From positions 637,617 through 701,616 of the forward strand of contig JBAZKL010000001.1 of assembly GCA_041650835.1 (NCBI GenBank): 64,000 bases of DNA, in the 5' to 3' direction. Shown here in pieces: positions 4,745 through 40,060 of this stretch (its first letter is position 1; every line of letters starts with the position of its first letter). The DNA comes from Candidatus Omnitrophota bacterium. GTDB lineage: Bacteria; Omnitrophota; Gorgyraeia; Gygaellales; Profunditerraquicolaceae. The translations under genes were made by a program, and so were the position numbers. The notes beneath the pieces were generated by a model. That model was not told the origin of the DNA, did not search any database, and saw nothing but the letters and a program-made list of their open reading frames with translations.

Positions 4745-6907
4745 CTATGCTTTTACTATCCGCTCAAGGCCGATGCGTTTTAATTCCTTATCTATCGCGA
4801 TCACCTTGACCTTGACCGCGTCCCCGACCGATACAACATCGTACGGGCTCTTCACATAGGTATTGCTTAGCCGGGAAATATGGATCAGGCCGTCCTGATG
4901 CACCCCGATATCCACAAACGCGCCGAAATTAGTCACATTCGTCACGGTCCCCTCAAGCACCATATCGATGCTTAAGTCATCGATCTCGTTTATCCGCGTA
5001 TTAAAAGAAACACAGGAGAATTCTTTTCGAGGGTCAAGACCCGGCTTACAAAGCTCCTTAACGATATCATTGAGCGTCAGGAGCCCCAGGTCATCGCGGA
5101 CATACCCCCGGCAGTCGATCTTTGCGGCCTCTCTTTCATTGCCGATCAACTCCCGGATATCGATCCCCCGGTCGCGCGCCATTTGTTCAACGCAGGAATA
5201 GCGCTCCGGATGGATCGCGGAATTATCTAAAGGGTTATTCCCGCCGGGTATCCTCAAGAAACCGGCGCATTGCTCAAAAACCTTATTTCCCAAACGCGCG
5301 ACCTTCAACAGGTCATTCTTATCGTTAAACGAACCGTACTGCGCCCGGTAGGAAACGATATTCGAAGCGATGGTTTTTCCGATCCCCGAAACATAAGACA
5401 AAAGCGCTTCTGAAGCGGTATTTAAGTTCACTCCGACATGATTAACGCAAGATTCAACCACATAATCCAAGGTATCCTGTAATTCCGCCTGGTTGACGTC
5501 GTGCTGGTATTGCCCTACCCCGATCGCCTTGGGCTCGATCTTTACCAATTCTGCCAGAGGGTCCTGCAGCCTTCGGGCGATACTGATCGCCCCCCTGACG
5601 GTCACATCAAGACCGGGAAACTCTTTAACAGCCGTTTCAGACGCCGAATAAACCGACGCCCCCGCTTCACTGACAACAATACACAAAACCGGCGCTTGCT
5701 CCTGTTTAAGCAGCTCAATAAAGAACGCGTTGGTCTCTTTTGAAGCGGTGCCGTTACCTATCGCGATAATATCCACGCCGTGTTTTTTGATCAATCCCGC
5801 GACAGCCTGCTGAGCGAGCTTTCTCTGCTGCTCTGACGAATGGGGAAAGATCTGCGCGTATTCTTTATAATTTGAGTTGCGGTCTATGACCACCACCTTA
5901 ACGCCGGTCCTAAAACCCGGGTCAACGCCCATGATCACCTTATGCCCCGCCGGCGAAGCTAAAAGCAGGTTTTCCAGGTTCTTGGAAAATACGCTTATTG
6001 CCTCTTTTTCAGCTTCAGCGAGCTTCATTAAAAACACCTCTGTTTCTATGGAAAGTGAGAGCAGCCGTTTGTAACTGTCGGTTATCGCGGCGCATAATTC
6101 AGGATAGAACAAAGCTTCTTTATCGACGATCACTGCCTCTTCAATTAATCCCCGCGCGCCCTCCGGGTCAACTTCGATCTTCCAGATCAAAACATTTTCC
6201 GCCGCCCCGCGCCTGATCGCCAGGATCCGGTGCGAAGGCGATTTCTTGAGAGGCTCCGAAAAATTATAATAGGTTTCGAATTTTGATTTTTTGCCCGCCC
6301 AATCCTTATGCGGCCGCGCGATAATGACCCCCTCGCCCCAGGCGTATTCCCGGAGCCTGCTACGGACCCGGGCGTTATCAGCGATCATTTCAGCGACAAT
6401 ATCACCGGCCCCTAACAAGGCATCTTCATAGGTATTAACCCCCTTATCGGGGTTCAAGAACCTTAAAACGATCTCCTGCTTTCGGCCTTCGCGGAGCTGT
6501 TCCATCATGATATCCGCCAACGGCTGCAGCCCCTTCTCTTTCGCGATCGTGGCGCGGGTCCTTTTCTTAGGCTTGAACGGGAGGTAAAGGTCTTCGAGCT
6601 TTTGCTTTTCCCGGCAGGCGGCGATCTCTTTTTCCAATGCCGGCGTCAAAAGCCCCAGGCCATCGATCGTCTTGATGACAGTTTCTTTCCTTTTTTCAAG
6701 CTCGGTATAATAATTCAGCTTAACCTGTATCGCGCGCACCCGGGTTTCATCCAAACCGCCTGTTTTTTCTTTTCGATACCGCGAGATAAAAGGCACGGTC
6801 GCTCCTGATGAAAAAAGCTCGACGGTACTCTTCACCGCGGGTAACGCGATAGAGAGATCTTCAGCGATATACAAAGCGATCAAATTATTTTCCATATCAG
6901 AGGGCAC
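4745..6907 (-). CDS. tex: transcription accessory protein Tex (YqgF/HhH/S1 domains)
   Basis: 720 aa with the Tex N-terminal signature (VPFISRYRKE..TGGLDE) and a C-terminal S1 domain (GTVTNVTNFGAFVDIGVHQDGLIHISRLS). Confidence 0.9.
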   Translation of the reverse strand: MPSDMENNLIALYIAEDLSIALPAVKSTVELFSSGATVPFISRYRKEKTGGLDETRVRAIQVKLNYYTELEKRKETVIKTIDGLGLLTPALEKEIAACREKQKLEDLYLPFKPKKRTRATIAKEKGLQPLADIMMEQLREGRKQEIVLRFLNPDKGVNTYEDALLGAGDIVAEMIADNARVRSRLREYAWGEGVIIARPHKDWAGKKSKFETYYNFSEPLKKSPSHRILAIRRGAAENVLIWKIEVDPEGARGLIEEAVIVDKEALFYPELCAAITDSYKRLLSLSIETEVFLMKLAEAEKEAISVFSKNLENLLLASPAGHKVIMGVDPGFRTGVKVVVIDRNSNYKEYAQIFPHSSEQQRKLAQQAVAGLIKKHGVDIIAIGNGTASKETNAFFIELLKQEQAPVLCIVVSEAGASVYSASETAVKEFPGLDVTVRGAISIARRLQDPLAELVKIEPKAIGVGQYQHDVNQAELQDTLDYVVESCVNHVGVNLNTASEALLSYVSGIGKTIASNIVSYRAQYGSFNDKNDLLKVARLGNKVFEQCAGFLRIPGGNNPLDNSAIHPERYSCVEQMARDRGIDIRELIGNEREAAKIDCRGYVRDDLGLLTLNDIVKELCKPGLDPRKEFSCVSFNTRINEIDDLSIDMVLEGTVTNVTNFGAFVDIGVHQDGLIHISRLSNTYVKSPYDVVSVGDAVKVKVIAIDKELKRIGLERIVKA

Positions 6908-10095: not shown

Positions 10096-10306
10096 CTAAC
10101 GGATGGCTGCGACTGCACCTTGCCTTTATCGGATTGGCAAGTGCGTCCTTCTGGACTGATTTTGAGCGGGGCATAAAGGCAAGGAGCGGGCATGGTGTCC
10201 CGACGTTATACGTCGGGACGAGCGACGCAGCCGACCTGAGCGAAGTTTTGCCACGCTGGGGCAAAACGAGCGTCCCCGCGAGAAACAGTCGCAGCCATCC
10301 GTAATC
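10096..10306. repeat. 211 bp structured element bounded by 17-20 bp perfect terminal inverted repeats, with nested internal hairpins
   Basis: acggatggctgcgactg at 10099-10115 is the exact reverse complement of 10287-10303. Internal stems are ccttgcctttat/ataaaggcaagg, gtcccgacg/cgtcgggac and gttttgcc/ggcaaaac. Confidence 0.5.
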
Positions 10307-35192: not shown

Positions 35193-36013
35193 TTAATCAA
35201 CAATAGTTACTTCGGTATCCACAGGCACGATCGCGTAAAGCTCTTCAACATCCGCGTTCAACATCCGCACGCACCCCTGGGTCACCTGCTGCCCCAGCTT
35301 CTCCGGTTCAACAGTGCCATGGATACCATAACCGGCCATATTAAACCCGAGCCATCGGGTACCCAGGACATTCTCGGGGCTCCCCGGGGCAACCACCGCT
35401 CCCGCCTTAAACCATGTCGGGTTCGGTAATTTATTGATGATCTTAAATGTCCCTACGGGAGTGGAATTATTAAGGCCGGTAGAAACAACATAAGACTTAA
35501 TGATCTCATCTTCGGTTTTAAGCAAAAGGATATTCTGGGATTTATCCACGAATATCGTGAACGGGACGGTCCATACTTTAAGCTTTTTCCCGGGGATGAT
35601 CTTATCGCTGGTTAAATTATTGCTCCTCATGATCAACTCGGTCGTTGTCTTAAATTCTTTAGCGATCTTGATCAAGGCGTCTCCCGGCTTTATTTCATAG
35701 GTAGCCGTCCGCTCCGGGATAAGCGTGGGAGAAAAAAGCAGTTTAATATTCAGTTCTTCGAGCTTCTTCTGCCAGGAAAACATATCGCGTGAACTGGAGA
35801 ATTCTTCGGTCAATTTCGCGTACGCGCTCTTCGCCTCAAGGAGCTTTCCTTGAGCCTCAAACTCTTTTGCCTGAGCGACTAACGATGAAACAGACCCCCC
35901 AGCCCCTCCCGCCATCTGCTGAGGCATGTTACGCCCGTTCATTTTGAGCAGCAAAAAAAACACCGATACTATAAAAATCAAGGGGATCACGATCAAAAGA
36001 ATTTTTTTCACTC
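35193..36013 (-). CDS. L,D-transpeptidase (YkuD) with a LysM domain, membrane anchored
   Basis: LysM (IKPGDALIKIAKEFKTTTELIMRSNNL) and the YkuD catalytic region (HGT...TQGCVRM). The start is proposed at GTG 36013, preceded by a GGAGA RBS. The longer track ORF to 36164 runs into the hairpin array. Confidence 0.7.
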
Positions 36014-36016
36014 TAG

Positions 36017-36360
36017 TCTCCTTTCGCAGAAAGCGAAACACCAACGCAATTCCTCTTAAGCGTTGGGTGTAACAGAAAGGCGCATACCCACACAATTCCA
36101 ATTTGTGTGGGGTGTTCGCAGAAAGCGAAACACGCCGCAGTAAGCGGCGTACTTGCCTATCCAATTAAGGCAAGTGCCAACGCAATTCTGCCGCAGTAAG
36201 CGGCATACCCAGCCACACCAATTAGGCTGGGTGCGATCTGCGTTGGGTGTAACAGAAAGCCGCGTACCGGCGCAATTCCAATCTGCGCCGGGTGCAGGCA
36301 GAAAGCCACACACCCCGCTACACCTATAAAGCGGGGTGCCAATTTGCGCGGGATATTACA
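36017..36360. ncRNA. array of at least 8 tandem stem-loops with variable stems and conserved loop motifs; candidate CsrB/RsmZ-like sRNA on the minus strand, or a structured leader/repeat array
   Basis: Hairpins are caccaacgc/gcgttgggtg, cccacaca/tgtgtggg, cgccgc/gcggcg, cttgcc/ggcaag, gccgc/gcggc, cccagcc/ggctggg, ccggcgc/gcgccgg and ccccgct/agcgggg. Loops are AATTCCAAT-like (AUUGGAAUU on the minus strand). Units recur as taCC[stem]-loop-[stem]GGgtg. The strand is unresolved. Confidence 0.55.
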
Positions 36361-36364
36361 ACAT

Positions 36365-36817
36365 TTAAATCGCTTGCGCGGTGATCGCGATAGCAACTCC
36401 CAGCAAAAATCCGCCGATAACTTCAATAGGGGTGTGGCCGACCAATTCCCGCAGCCGCCCCTCCTGGATCTTGCCTTGCCAATATATATCTTCCATGATC
36501 TTATTTAAGATCTGGGCCTGTTTACCTGCAGAGCGCCTGACCCCCTGCGCGTCAAACATGACCACGATCGCGAATGACGCGGCGAGCGCGAAATCGACAC
36601 TGTCAAAACCTTTCGACAGGCCGATCGCCGTTGCTAAACAAGAGGCCCCGGCAGTATGGCTCGAAGGCATCCCGCCCGTGCCGATAAACCAGCGAAAATC
36701 GAACTTTTTCTCTTTAATAACACCGATGATCACTTTGACGGTCTGAGCGGCTATCCAGCTCAATAAGGTGACCATCAAGATCTTGTTGTGGTAAAACTGG
36801 GTAAAAATATTGTCCAT
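36365..36817 (-). CDS. divergent PAP2 family protein (YuiD/DUF212-like)
   Basis: GGMPSSHTA motif and TM helices. The start is set at MDNIF. Confidence 0.65.
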   Translation of the reverse strand: MDNIFTQFYHNKILMVTLLSWIAAQTVKVIIGVIKEKKFDFRWFIGTGGMPSSHTAGASCLATAIGLSKGFDSVDFALAASFAIVVMFDAQGVRRSAGKQAQILNKIMEDIYWQGKIQEGRLRELVGHTPIEVIGGFLLGVAIAITAQAI

Positions 36818-36827
36818 ACGTATTGCT

Positions 36828-37463
36828 TTATTGTGAGATCGGCTCGACCTGTATCTTGATCCGGGGATAAAACGTCGGCTTCCCATCTTTGATAATATAA
36901 CCGCCGTTTCCTATCATCTCTCGCAGTTGGGCTGTTTTTACTTTTTCTATCTTAACCAATGTTTTAACCTCTTTATTGGTTTTACGCACGTGCTTCTTCA
37001 AATCCCGTATCATCTGCTTGAGCTCGACGACTGAATCCATTTTTTCTTCCAGGTCTTTTTTTTCCTGGGCAGCTTGAGCCAACTGGAGGGTCATTGTTTC
37101 TTTCTGGTTCGCCAAAGACACATTTTCGGCTTTTAAGGCGACAACCTCATTATTCAGCGTTTCTATATCGTTAAGCGCCGCCTGGAACTCCTCGCCGAGC
37201 TGAGCGAGCTTCTCTTCGCCGGCTTTCAACTCCTCCTTGAGCGCTGTATTCTCCGCGGATAAAGAATTACTGACCGCTTTTTCACTTCCCAGGGAAGTTA
37301 ACAACGACTGATTCTCATTTTTCAAAGAAAGAACTTCAGCCTTCATTTTTTCAAGCGCAGCAAGCATGCCATATTTTTCCTGCAGTGAAGCAATATACAT
37401 GTAAACGGTAAATATGGTTATACCCGCTAAAAAAACAACAAATATAATTTTCAAATGCTTCAT
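36828..37463 (-). CDS. membrane-anchored coiled-coil protein
   Basis: N-terminal TM helix followed by about 150 aa of heptad-rich sequence. Confidence 0.5.
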   Translation of the reverse strand: MKHLKIIFVVFLAGITIFTVYMYIASLQEKYGMLAALEKMKAEVLSLKNENQSLLTSLGSEKAVSNSLSAENTALKEELKAGEEKLAQLGEEFQAALNDIETLNNEVVALKAENVSLANQKETMTLQLAQAAQEKKDLEEKMDSVVELKQMIRDLKKHVRKTNKEVKTLVKIEKVKTAQLREMIGNGGYIIKDGKPTFYPRIKIQVEPISQ

Positions 37464-37728
37464 TGAAGCTCCTTGAATACTTTAACAGATTCTATAATTA
37501 TATACCAGAGCCCGGAAAAAGCAAGGTTTTTCCCTATCCCTAAGCGTGGAAAGGCCTTCTTGAGCAAAAGATCTCTTAACTGATCAATGAAGCGTATGGT
37601 GAGATTTTCAATAAATTTTCGTTAGATTTAGCGTTCTAAGACGTCTATTATTAGTGAGGGGATAGATTAGCGGGCAAGGTGACCTTGCTTCTCAGTCTGT
37701 TCACCGATAACCGCAAAACGGAGGCTAC

Positions 37729-39255: not shown

Positions 39256-39345
39256 CGACAGGGACCTGTCAAAAGGTGGCTGTCACCCTTTGACTTGATT
39301 AAAGACAAAACCATGAAAAAAACACAACGCTTGAATCTTGCAATT

Positions 39346-39396
39346 GAAGAAGCTTGGTGACTGTCACGTTTTGCGTGACTGTCACCAAGCTTCTCG
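39346..39396. repeat. inverted pair of REP-like palindromes (GTGACTGTCACC core)
   Basis: gaagaagcttggtgactgtcacg tttt gcgtgactgtcaccaagcttctc forms a near-perfect 51 nt palindrome immediately upstream of the RAYT gene. A related copy ggtggctgtcaccc lies at 39276-39289. Confidence 0.6.
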
Positions 39397-39411: not shown

Positions 39412-40032
39412 ATGCCGCGCACCTCACGTTTTATTGCAACAAACGCTTTCTACCATATCATATCCCGCTCACTAAATGATACCCATATACTACGAGACAA
39501 CGATGATTTTACGCGTTTCTTTATGCTTGTTGATACAGCAAAACAAAAATATCCCATCCTGATATTTCATTATGTCGCAATGAATACTCATTTTCATTTA
39601 GTAGTACAAGCGCCTAATCATGAGATTCTTTCTAAGAATATTTCGCATCTAAAATGGCATTACACATTGTGGATGAGAAAAAAATACGGATGGAAAGGCC
39701 CCCTATGGAAGGAACGATACAAAAGTTTACCTATCGAAAACGAAAATTATCTTTATGCCTGCGGAATGTATATCGCCTATAACCCTGTCCGGGCGGGGGT
39801 ATGCAAAGACCCCGGTGATTACCCTTACAGCAGCTTCCGAAAATACCATAGAGGAATAAATGATCCGTTGATCGATCTCCAAGAAAGCCAGAAAGGTGAC
39901 AGTCACCTTTCTGAACAATGGGATTTCCGTTCGAATTTGCTAAAAAATATTTTCAGCCACTCTTCAGCTATCGGCTCAACCCTTTTTATCGAAAAACTTA
40001 AACAACCCCGAAATGCCTGTCCCCAAAAGTGA
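39412..40032 (+). CDS. REP-associated tyrosine transposase (RAYT; IS200/IS605 Y1 transposase-like)
   Basis: Y1 transposase motifs are present: HTH-like N-terminus, HFHLVV (HuH) and the C-terminal YIAYNPVRAGVCKDPGDYPYSSF. The gene is flanked by REP palindromes. Confidence 0.8.
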   Translation: MPRTSRFIATNAFYHIISRSLNDTHILRDNDDFTRFFMLVDTAKQKYPILIFHYVAMNTHFHLVVQAPNHEILSKNISHLKWHYTLWMRKKYGWKGPLWKERYKSLPIENENYLYACGMYIAYNPVRAGVCKDPGDYPYSSFRKYHRGINDPLIDLQESQKGDSHLSEQWDFRSNLLKNIFSHSSAIGSTLFIEKLKQPRNACPQK

Positions 40033-40060
40033 CTGTCACCAAAAGTGACTGTCACCGTTG
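40028..40060. repeat. two direct REP copies (aaaagtgactgtcacc x2)
   Basis: Tandem 16-mers immediately after the RAYT stop codon. Confidence 0.6.

Follow-up and report, generated by a model that had tools for sequence, protein, structure and literature searches.

REP sequences share a common stem from copy to copy and carry a GTAG-type tetranucleotide on the 5′ side; within BIMEs, successive copies point in alternating directions. Mycobacterial interspersed repetitive units (MIRUs), which Supply and colleagues reportedly set out in 1997 in their work on MIRU-VNTR, are said to be direct tandem repeats of 40–100 bp that lie between the cistrons of operons, follow the direction of transcription and vary in copy number. 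Their short open reading frames (ORFs) extend over the stop and start codons on either side and so couple translation, and they are not hairpin modules. CsrA dimers can bridge two GGA sites, and the boxB module of BOX elements is about 45 nt long. For the BOX elements of pneumococci, the excerpted text of PMC3049150 describes tandem boxB modules that vary in number, are co-transcribed, fold into stem-loops and are inserted into one another. Here we analyse an array of hairpins that lies between a DUF212 gene and an L,D-transpeptidase (LDT) gene in a 64-kb stretch of a Candidatus Omnitrophota genome (hereafter, the window). The array is best supported as part of a module family that has not previously been described, which turns over fast, acts in cis and is amplified to about seven units at this locus. 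We give about an even chance to the reading that it is a lineage-specific modular mRNA leader, or intercistronic RNA element, that is bound by a factor and tunes the downstream gene.

The array is a genuine structure and fills the entire gap from the DUF212 stop codon to the Shine–Dalgarno (SD) sequence of the LDT gene (352 nt, without a break); the start codon of that gene, GTG (36011–36009), follows the SD after 4 nt. A first-pass annotation of this DNA had described the gap between the PAP2-family and transpeptidase genes as filled with hairpins, and we count nine perfect hairpins with stems of at least 6 bp, against 1.1 predicted from the rest of the window (Poisson P = 2e-6). Folding of both strands, which that annotation had proposed, gave minimum free energies of −164 kcal/mol for the minus strand (z = −8.4 against dinucleotide shuffles) and −162 kcal/mol for the plus strand (z = −9.1). 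The hairpin excess, the folding scores on both strands and the direct repeats (ttcgcagaaagcgaaaca and gcgttgggtgtaacagaaag, each present twice) together indicate that the array is real. Its taCC...GGgtg flanks, its differing but complementary stems and its loop cores AATTCCAAT and CCAATTA are also present as first described. The array has no match in Rfam at the gathering score, and a search of 35800–36600 at E values up to 10 returned only two microRNA noise matches.

No conserved ORF runs through the array. Its loci in two relatives (L001 and L061) carry stops in all three sense frames, and indels of 20 nt and 46 nt disrupt the reading frame; the two ORFs called across the repeats, which had been suspected to be artefacts, are not conserved in relatives. 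We therefore reject a protein-coding role, an N-terminal extension and a MIRU-like ORF, given that the array frames are not conserved. The likeness to MIRUs lies in the sense-oriented direct tandem repeats between genes, the copy number of which varies among close relatives.

On the minus strand, the units of the array, of about 45 nt each, follow one another head to tail, and every unit has a large hairpin (B) followed by a small hairpin (S) (Table 1). The B hairpin begins with CACC and continues with a variable GC-rich stem of 4–6 bp, a loop of 7–12 nt centred on UUGGA, the complementary arm and GGUR. Its apical loop is A/U-rich, of the type UUAUUGGAAUU, with a consensus of about UUAU-NGG-AAUU. 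The S hairpin has a stem of 5–6 bp and a loop of UUUCU or UUACU, and these two loops account for all seven small hairpins of the array. The copy number is about seven (six to seven tandem copies): six units are intact, and besides these there are an interrupted outer B hairpin, an extra S hairpin and an orphan half of a B hairpin, the counterpart of which in L061 is an intact outer hairpin (CCCGCGC...GCGCGGG). The alternation of two hairpin types, the large hairpin that encloses a whole unit and the orphan half-hairpin add to what had first been noted.

Of the described systems, BOX elements (boxA-boxB(n)-boxC) share with the array a modular tandem unit of variable number, predicted stem-loops in co-transcribed RNA, polymorphism between strains and mutual insertion, as far as the excerpted text of PMC3049150 describes them. 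They differ in that BOX copies share their whole sequence, have terminal inverted repeats (boxA and boxC), are numerous and follow no rule of abutting an SD, whereas the units of the array have only the loop and the stem base in common, and their stems covary.

Members of the family also precede other genes. Scanning of metagenome sequences with a 23-nt probe from unit 5 found a second locus in the 5′ untranslated region (UTR) of a gene for a ShlB/FhaC-type TpsB outer-membrane protein (L075, L073 and L076); L076 and L061 are on the same 543-kb contig. The TpsB array is short, lies 3′ of a promoter-like TTGACA-17-TAAGAT site (10 of 12 matches) and ends in ...UUUUGC-AUUCU-GCAAAA/GGAGG...AUG (here and below, the slash marks a junction); no terminator was found in it. 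A covariance model of the unit, trained on 15 units, recovers the six units of the window and finds units outside the training set in the leaders of three further genes, which encode a secreted FGE-sulfatase-family protein, an MFS transporter and ComM (Table 1). The comM leader (L010) holds two units 3′ of a promoter-like motif that is conserved across Omnitrophota comM genes; the second of the two is weak (14.2 bits, E about 0.5) and was recognized mainly by eye. The leaders of relatives carry one to three copies per site.

These five gene contexts (LDT, TpsB, FGE-sulfatase, MFS transporter and ComM) are mutually unrelated, and the unit lies on the sense strand in all five. In each of them, the 3′ arm of the last S hairpin directly abuts the SD (GCGAAA/GGAGAC, GCAAAA/GGAGG, AGGGGA/GGAGGA, ACACAA/AGGAGA and GCGCGA/GGAGG). 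Because relatives carry the module just 5′ of the SDs of unrelated genes, we favour a leader element over a free-standing small RNA (sRNA). Orthologous sites, including the MFS and FGE sites, are empty in sister genomes, and the two distant LDT and TpsB loci have a nearly identical module of about 85 nt in common. Elsewhere in the window, there is a single isolated unit (10116–10158), which makes two sites in total.

Units also occur within one another. In the TpsB leader of L075, the outer hairpin is uninterrupted and its loop is the perfect consensus UUAUUGGAAUU, whereas in L076 a nested 45-nt unit interrupts it; the two Gs of the loop therefore mark where the nested unit was inserted (or, in the other direction, precisely lost). 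Other nested cases have the same type of junction, with ...GAG/CACC, ...AGG/CACC or ...UCG/CACC at the 5′ end of the nested unit and .../(G)AAUU at its 3′ end. The module that results in the window, an outer B hairpin with a nested unit in its loop followed by unit 5, is kept as a three-way junction in L001, L061 and L076.

The region upstream of comM is itself variable. Omnitrophota comM genes at about 40 loci (for example, window 37600–37728, L010 3320–3450, L021 and L001) share the promoter-like motif, GTTAGATT-N(~15-20)-ACGTCTATTA. Lineage-specific hairpin inserts of several kinds are concentrated in the 5′ UTR that separates it from the SD, including an S-like GUCCCGC-AUUCU-GCGGGAC hairpin in L021 and CGGUG-rich repeats in L001.

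The LDT protein assigns the window to Candidatus Omnitrophota. At the LDT locus, the gene order ComM, coiled-coil protein, DUF212, LDT, AccA and PadR is widely kept, but the array is not. It is found only in the closest relatives (L001, L063 and L064, in which LDT is 90% identical, and L061 and L062, 82%). In L065–L072 (LDT 71% identical), the DUF212–LDT spacer is 34 nt long and empty, and none of about 40 other Omnitrophota loci checked has the array. We reject a syntenic element conserved across Omnitrophota, as the array was present at just one of 43 LDT loci of other species, the closest (L001). In the closest relatives the stems covary, and in more distant Omnitrophota the sites are empty.

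Where the array is present, it evolves fast, by gain and loss of whole units, nested insertions and compensatory stem substitutions. Over the 181 nt nearest the SD, the window and L001 share 93% identity at aligned positions (89% for the adjacent LDT coding DNA), and in the distal part whole units and one relocated unit set the window, L001 and L061 apart. Orthologous stems show double compensatory changes in several cases: CCCACACAA/UUGUGUGGG versus CCCACGCU/AGCGUGGG, CGCCGC/GCGGCG versus CGCCGU/ACGGCG, and UUUCGC/GCGAA versus UUUCAC/GUGAA. The distal part of L001 additionally carries 20-nt mini-hairpins with GGCA loops placed inside S hairpins, between stem and loop. These mini-hairpins have a common loop and stems that differ by two compensatory pairs, and are a second kind of nested insert in the array.

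Covariation extends across the family. In 22 model-aligned units (19 distinct), standard pairs fill 84% of paired cells, compared with 67% in column shuffles, and none of 500 shuffles reached 84%. The covariation score is 0.42 (0.19 when shuffled; at most 0.18 in slid controls), and 10 of the 13 pairs have changed on both sides. In the outer helix of the three-way junction, two positions switch between AU, CG and GC without a broken pair (four sequences from two loci and three genomes). Between copies, the loop and the CACC/GGUG base are conserved, and the stems differ.

The minus strand, on which both flanking genes lie, is the most probable functional strand; the first-pass annotation had made the same choice, and both the context and the base pairs support it, with 16 G–U pairs against 5 A–C mismatches on the sense strand. 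An RNA-level element on the gene strand is favoured by the combination of this G–U bias with a sense orientation that never varies, placement of the units between promoter and SD, and an SD that is left exposed.

We propose that the spacer is noncoding minus-strand mRNA that would be co-transcribed with the DUF212 and transpeptidase genes. As the last S hairpin ends exactly where the SD begins, the SD is predicted to be left single-stranded. The conserved loop may be the recognition site of a hypothetical trans-acting factor, most simply an RNA-binding protein; one candidate is a CsrA-type protein that recognizes a GGA or SD-like motif, although nothing observed requires CsrA. Bound beside the SD, such a factor would tune translation initiation, mRNA stability or both for the downstream gene. 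The seven-fold array before the transpeptidase gene would raise avidity, with titration of the factor as a possible by-product, and units would insert at G^G of the loop of another unit to give three-way junctions. A repeated leader of the transpeptidase gene, bound by a putative protein, had been offered as the second choice when the array was first described, and is a much better fit than the first choice, a discrete sRNA.

The Omnitrophota are uncultivated and post-transcriptional control in this phylum is almost unexplored; the covariance model makes the module searchable. Among the several genes whose ribosome-binding regions it marks, three code for envelope or secreted-type proteins. 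Should a protein bind the loop, the module would define a regulon not described before, and the mRNA leader would serve at the same time as a natural sponge.

Several points weigh against a factor-bound leader. The strand and the co-transcription are deduced from sequence. Sense and antisense folding energies are nearly equal (0–6 kcal/mol apart), which makes energy indecisive for the choice of strand; with stems that are almost all Watson–Crick as well, the hairpins could equally form in single-stranded DNA (ssDNA). Perfect and seemingly covarying stems could also be obtained through ssDNA hairpins or template-switch correction of palindromes, and such 'palindrome correction' could explain the double compensatory changes among very close paralogues. 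The patchy presence of the module (empty orthologous sites at LDT identities of 71% or less and at the sister MFS and FGE sites) is typical of selfish interspersed repeats too, and the nested, boundary-precise insertions of units point to an insertion process at the DNA level. The binding factor is hypothetical, the loop core varies (GGA, GGU or CUGA), and the isolated unit of the window does not lie beside an SD.

The main rival, possible although unlikely in our view, is that the array consists of selfish small interspersed repeats of the BOX, MITE or REP type: non-autonomous DNA elements of about 45 nt, whose effect on expression would be incidental. A host or transposon enzyme would recognize the folded ssDNA hairpin by its CACC/GGTG base and loop, copy it and insert it at GG in A/U-rich single-stranded contexts, namely the loops of the units themselves and SD-proximal DNA. 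Such an origin would account for the differing presence among close relatives at every locus, for unit number and order that vary among genomes with LDT 82–90% identical, and for complete units at G^G of other loops, as the uninterrupted L075 and interrupted L076 hairpins illustrate. The nearly identical ~85-nt module at two distant loci, the mini-hairpins inside the S hairpins of L001 and the almost purely Watson–Crick stems also fit. The turnover is close to that of mycobacterial MIRUs. It likewise closely parallels that of pneumococcal BOX elements as portrayed in the excerpted text of PMC3049150, and the array shares with BOX its variable tandem number, insertion polymorphism between close relatives and nested elements.

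Set against this, stem sequence differs among copies and conservation is confined to the loop and base, the reverse of what REP, BOX and MITE elements show. All units are direct, without terminal inverted repeats or target-site duplications, and identical copies are found for unit 5 only. The family has two sites only in 64 kb, lies in sense and abuts the SD in all five gene-associated sites, which is unexpected of random intergenic insertion, and shows more G–U than A–C on the sense strand. No copies were seen in the viral contigs scanned. A gene for a RAYT-like Y1 transposase lies 3 kb away and, together with the clustering of extragenic palindromes, recalls REP/BIME and RAYT systems; Y1 chemistry would be well suited to inserting elements into single-stranded loops with no target duplication. 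However, the array stems differ and all units run head to tail, and the palindrome on either side of the RAYT-like gene, GTGACTGTCAC, is unrelated to them and, within the window, confined to that gene; we therefore reject the hairpins as REPs of this transposase. A selfish origin may hold together with a regulatory effect, rather than instead of one. A selfish element that is conserved in structure alone and inserts into its own copies would be propagating in a way unusual for repeats.

A further reading, which we regard as a long shot, is that the B+S unit is a self-propagating 'translation-control cassette' that inserts at GG in exposed A/U-rich sequence by a single-strand-specific mechanism. 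Its targets would be its own apical loop, producing nested junctions and arrays, and the region just 5′ of SDs. Were this so, a new gene would gain a host-factor site in front of it with every insertion, post-transcriptional regulons would be rewired, and the uncultivated phylum would harbour a mobile element that is conserved as RNA or ssDNA structure and loop, not as sequence.

We consider it improbable that the hairpins act as a structural leader with no factor involved, in which GC-rich hairpins block decay that depends on the 5′ or 3′ end, insulate the SD or uncouple translation of the transpeptidase from that of DUF212. The very stable hairpins directly 5′ of an exposed SD in every context and the intercistronic position are compatible with such a role, and interspersed hairpin repeats elsewhere alter the stability of co-transcribed mRNA, according to the excerpted text of PMC3049150. 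Stability alone, however, leaves unexplained why the loop and the CACC/GGUG base are conserved across differing stems, and why a constant second small hairpin follows the first.

The reading first put forward, a trans-acting sRNA like CsrB, RsmY or RsmZ whose GGA loops sequester a CsrA-family protein, is highly improbable. The array resembles these sRNAs and CsrA-repressed leaders (glgC and hag) in its repeated hairpins with differing stems and its conserved, purine-rich loops, often with GGA; a further GGA lies in the SD directly downstream, and the multiplicity of units could titrate a binder. In single-unit leaders, the loop GGA lies about 30–35 nt 5′ of the SD GGAG (counted from the sequences), a geometry compatible with a CsrA dimer that bridges two sites. 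GGA is not, however, in every loop as had been claimed: it occurs in four of the six intact large loops of the window (UAAUUGGUGU and UUAUAGGUGU have GGU, and the small loops lack it) and in 12 of 17 distinct B loops across the family, the other five having GGU or CUGA; CUGA replaces GGA in the MFS leader and in one comM unit. The loops are long (7–12 nt, with the core UUAUUGGAAUU) and sit on long GC-rich stems of 7–10 bp, unlike short ANGGAN loops, and each B hairpin is followed by an obligatory second hairpin with a UUUCU loop, which the Csr systems lack. Nor is the array a separate gene. It runs unbroken from the upstream stop codon to the downstream SD, and scans of it for promoter-like and terminator-like signals gave no more than shuffled sequences would. 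None of the Csr/Rsm models of Rfam (CsrB, CsrC, RsmX, RsmY, RsmZ and PrrB, among others) matches it, and elsewhere ordinary 5′ UTRs hold one to three copies of the module. A tblastn search with three CsrA/RsmA proteins had no match in about 64 kb plus about 10 kb of the genome, so small a part that the null is uninformative for the whole genome, and we found no link between Omnitrophota and CsrA in the literature. Hairpin arrays with GGA alone do not demonstrate Csr/Rsm-type sRNAs.

Three other ideas were rejected. Kissing or pseudoknot pairing of B loops (GGAA) with S loops (UUUC), and pairing of S loops with the SD, showed no covariation in a by-eye comparison across units. Mimicry of anticodon loops, or an interaction in which the UGG core binds the 3′-terminal CCA of tRNA, fits poorly with variable loop sizes and unrelated downstream genes. 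A phage origin found no support in a scan of viral contigs with GCGCN{2,5}ATTGGAATTGCGC, in which none of 33 matches had the CACC/GGUG base or an S hairpin; 16 of the 33 belong to two families with near-identical flanks, and three weak model matches span the stem-loop core only.

Table 1. Features of the array, its flanks and related units (window coordinates unless a locus is named; bits are covariance model scores unless stated otherwise)
Feature	Position	Strand	Details
LDT gene	35193-36011	-	LysM + YkuD; N-terminal signal or transmembrane segment; downstream of array
LDT SD, GGAGAC	36016-36021	-	Directly 3′ of last S hairpin; same junction in L001 and L061
Hairpin array	36013-36364	-	Noncoding; intercistronic spacer/leader, DUF212 stop to LDT start
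Unit 7 (intact)	36022-36069	-	59.3 bits; 100% identity with L001
Unit 7, S hairpin	36022-36038	-	UUUCGC-UUUCU-GCGAAA; last S, ends at base before SD
Unit 7, B hairpin	36041-36066	-	CCAACGC-UUAAGAGGAAUU-GCGUUGG
Unit 6 (intact)	36070-36114	-	54.7 bits; compensatory changes relative to L001 and L061; S hairpin degenerate (UUUCU)
Unit 6, B hairpin	36087-36111	-	CCCACACAA-AUUGGAA-UUGUGUGGG
Extra S hairpin	36115-36131	-	UUCGC-UUUCU-GCGAA; 13 bits, partial model
Unit 5, 'U5' (intact)	36133-36176	-	B hairpin identical across all five arrays at both loci
Unit 5, S hairpin	36132-36150	-	CGCCGC-UUACU-GCGGCG
Unit 5, B hairpin	36151-36175	-	ACUUGCCU-UAAUUGGAU-AGGCAAGU
Three-way junction	36177-36246	-	Loop of outer B hairpin split by complete nested unit 4
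Three-way junction, outer arms	36240-36246, 36177-36183	-	CCAACGC, GCGUUGG
Unit 4, nested (intact)	36189-36233	-	
Unit 4, S hairpin	36189-36205	-	UGCCGC-UUACU-GCGGCA
Unit 4, B hairpin	36207-36232	-	ACCCAGCC-UAAUUGGUGU-GGCUGGGU
Unit 2 (intact)	36249-36294	-	54.7 bits; degenerate S hairpin with G-U pairs
Unit 2, B hairpin	36267-36291	-	CCGGCGCA-GAUUGGAAU-UGCGCCGG
Unit 1 (intact)	36296-36338	-	44.5 bits
Unit 1, S hairpin	36297-36307	-	GGC-UUUCU-GCC; short
Unit 1, B hairpin	36311-36338	-	CACCCCGCU-UUAUAGGUGU-AGCGGGGUG; loop without GGA
Orphan 5′ half of B hairpin	36339-36352	-	CCCGCGC-AAAUUGG; 3′ partner missing
DUF212 gene	36365-36886	-	Divergent PAP2; upstream of array
Isolated diverged B+S unit	10116-10158	+	B CACCUUGCCU-UUAUCGGAU-UGGCAAGUG, then S GUCC-UUCU-GGAC; 25.7 bits, E = 7e-5; inside separate ~205-nt structured element
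RAYT-like Y1 (IS200-like) transposase gene	39412-40032	+	206 aa; Pfam 7e-11; NCBIfam REP_Tyr_transpos 70.7 bits, below cut-off of 80
Unit before FGE-sulfatase-family gene (secreted)	L077 99-146 = L085 7099-7146		Before GGAGGA-AUG; 43 bits
Unit before MFS transporter gene	L085 3858-3903		Before AGGAGA-AUG; 36 bits
Two units in comM 5′ UTR	L010 3322-3409		SD-proximal unit 39.5 bits
Mini-hairpins in L001	L001 3626-3643, 3776-3796		GCCUGAC-GGCA-GUCAGGC, GCCUACC-GGCA-GGUAGGC

The GTGACTGTCAC palindromes are present in six copies in the window, all at the RAYT-like gene (flanks 39268–39392 and 40020–40058), and include a 16-bp inverted repeat upstream of the gene and two direct copies downstream.

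The isolated unit is contained in a structured element of about 205 nt (10099–10303, plus strand; z = −6.4) between minus-strand genes for an aldehyde dehydrogenase and a class II aldolase. This element is closed by a 16-bp terminal inverted repeat (CGGATGGCTGCGACTG / CAGTCGCAGCCATCCG), and its core has the form GAGCGGGCAUGGUGUC-hairpin-GGACGAGCGA...UUGCCACGCUGGGGCAA...CGAGCG, with GAGCG recurring about five times. The core is common to a GC-rich relative (L040, about 5500–5640, minus strand), and its hairpins covary. The element has no match in Rfam, and may be an uncharacterized noncoding RNA or a MITE-like element. The sole Rfam match in the window at the gathering score is a c-di-GMP-I riboswitch aptamer (RF01051; 56140–56221, minus strand; 64.2 bits, E = 3e-10).

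A different tandem hairpin repeat lies just 3′ of accA in an Omnitrophota-like metagenome-assembled genome (L041 5620–5995, plus strand; partly N-masked). Its 66-nt unit contains the hairpins CGAGG-GUUCUUUG-(G)CCUCG and CCGAUGC-AUUGG-GCAUCGG.

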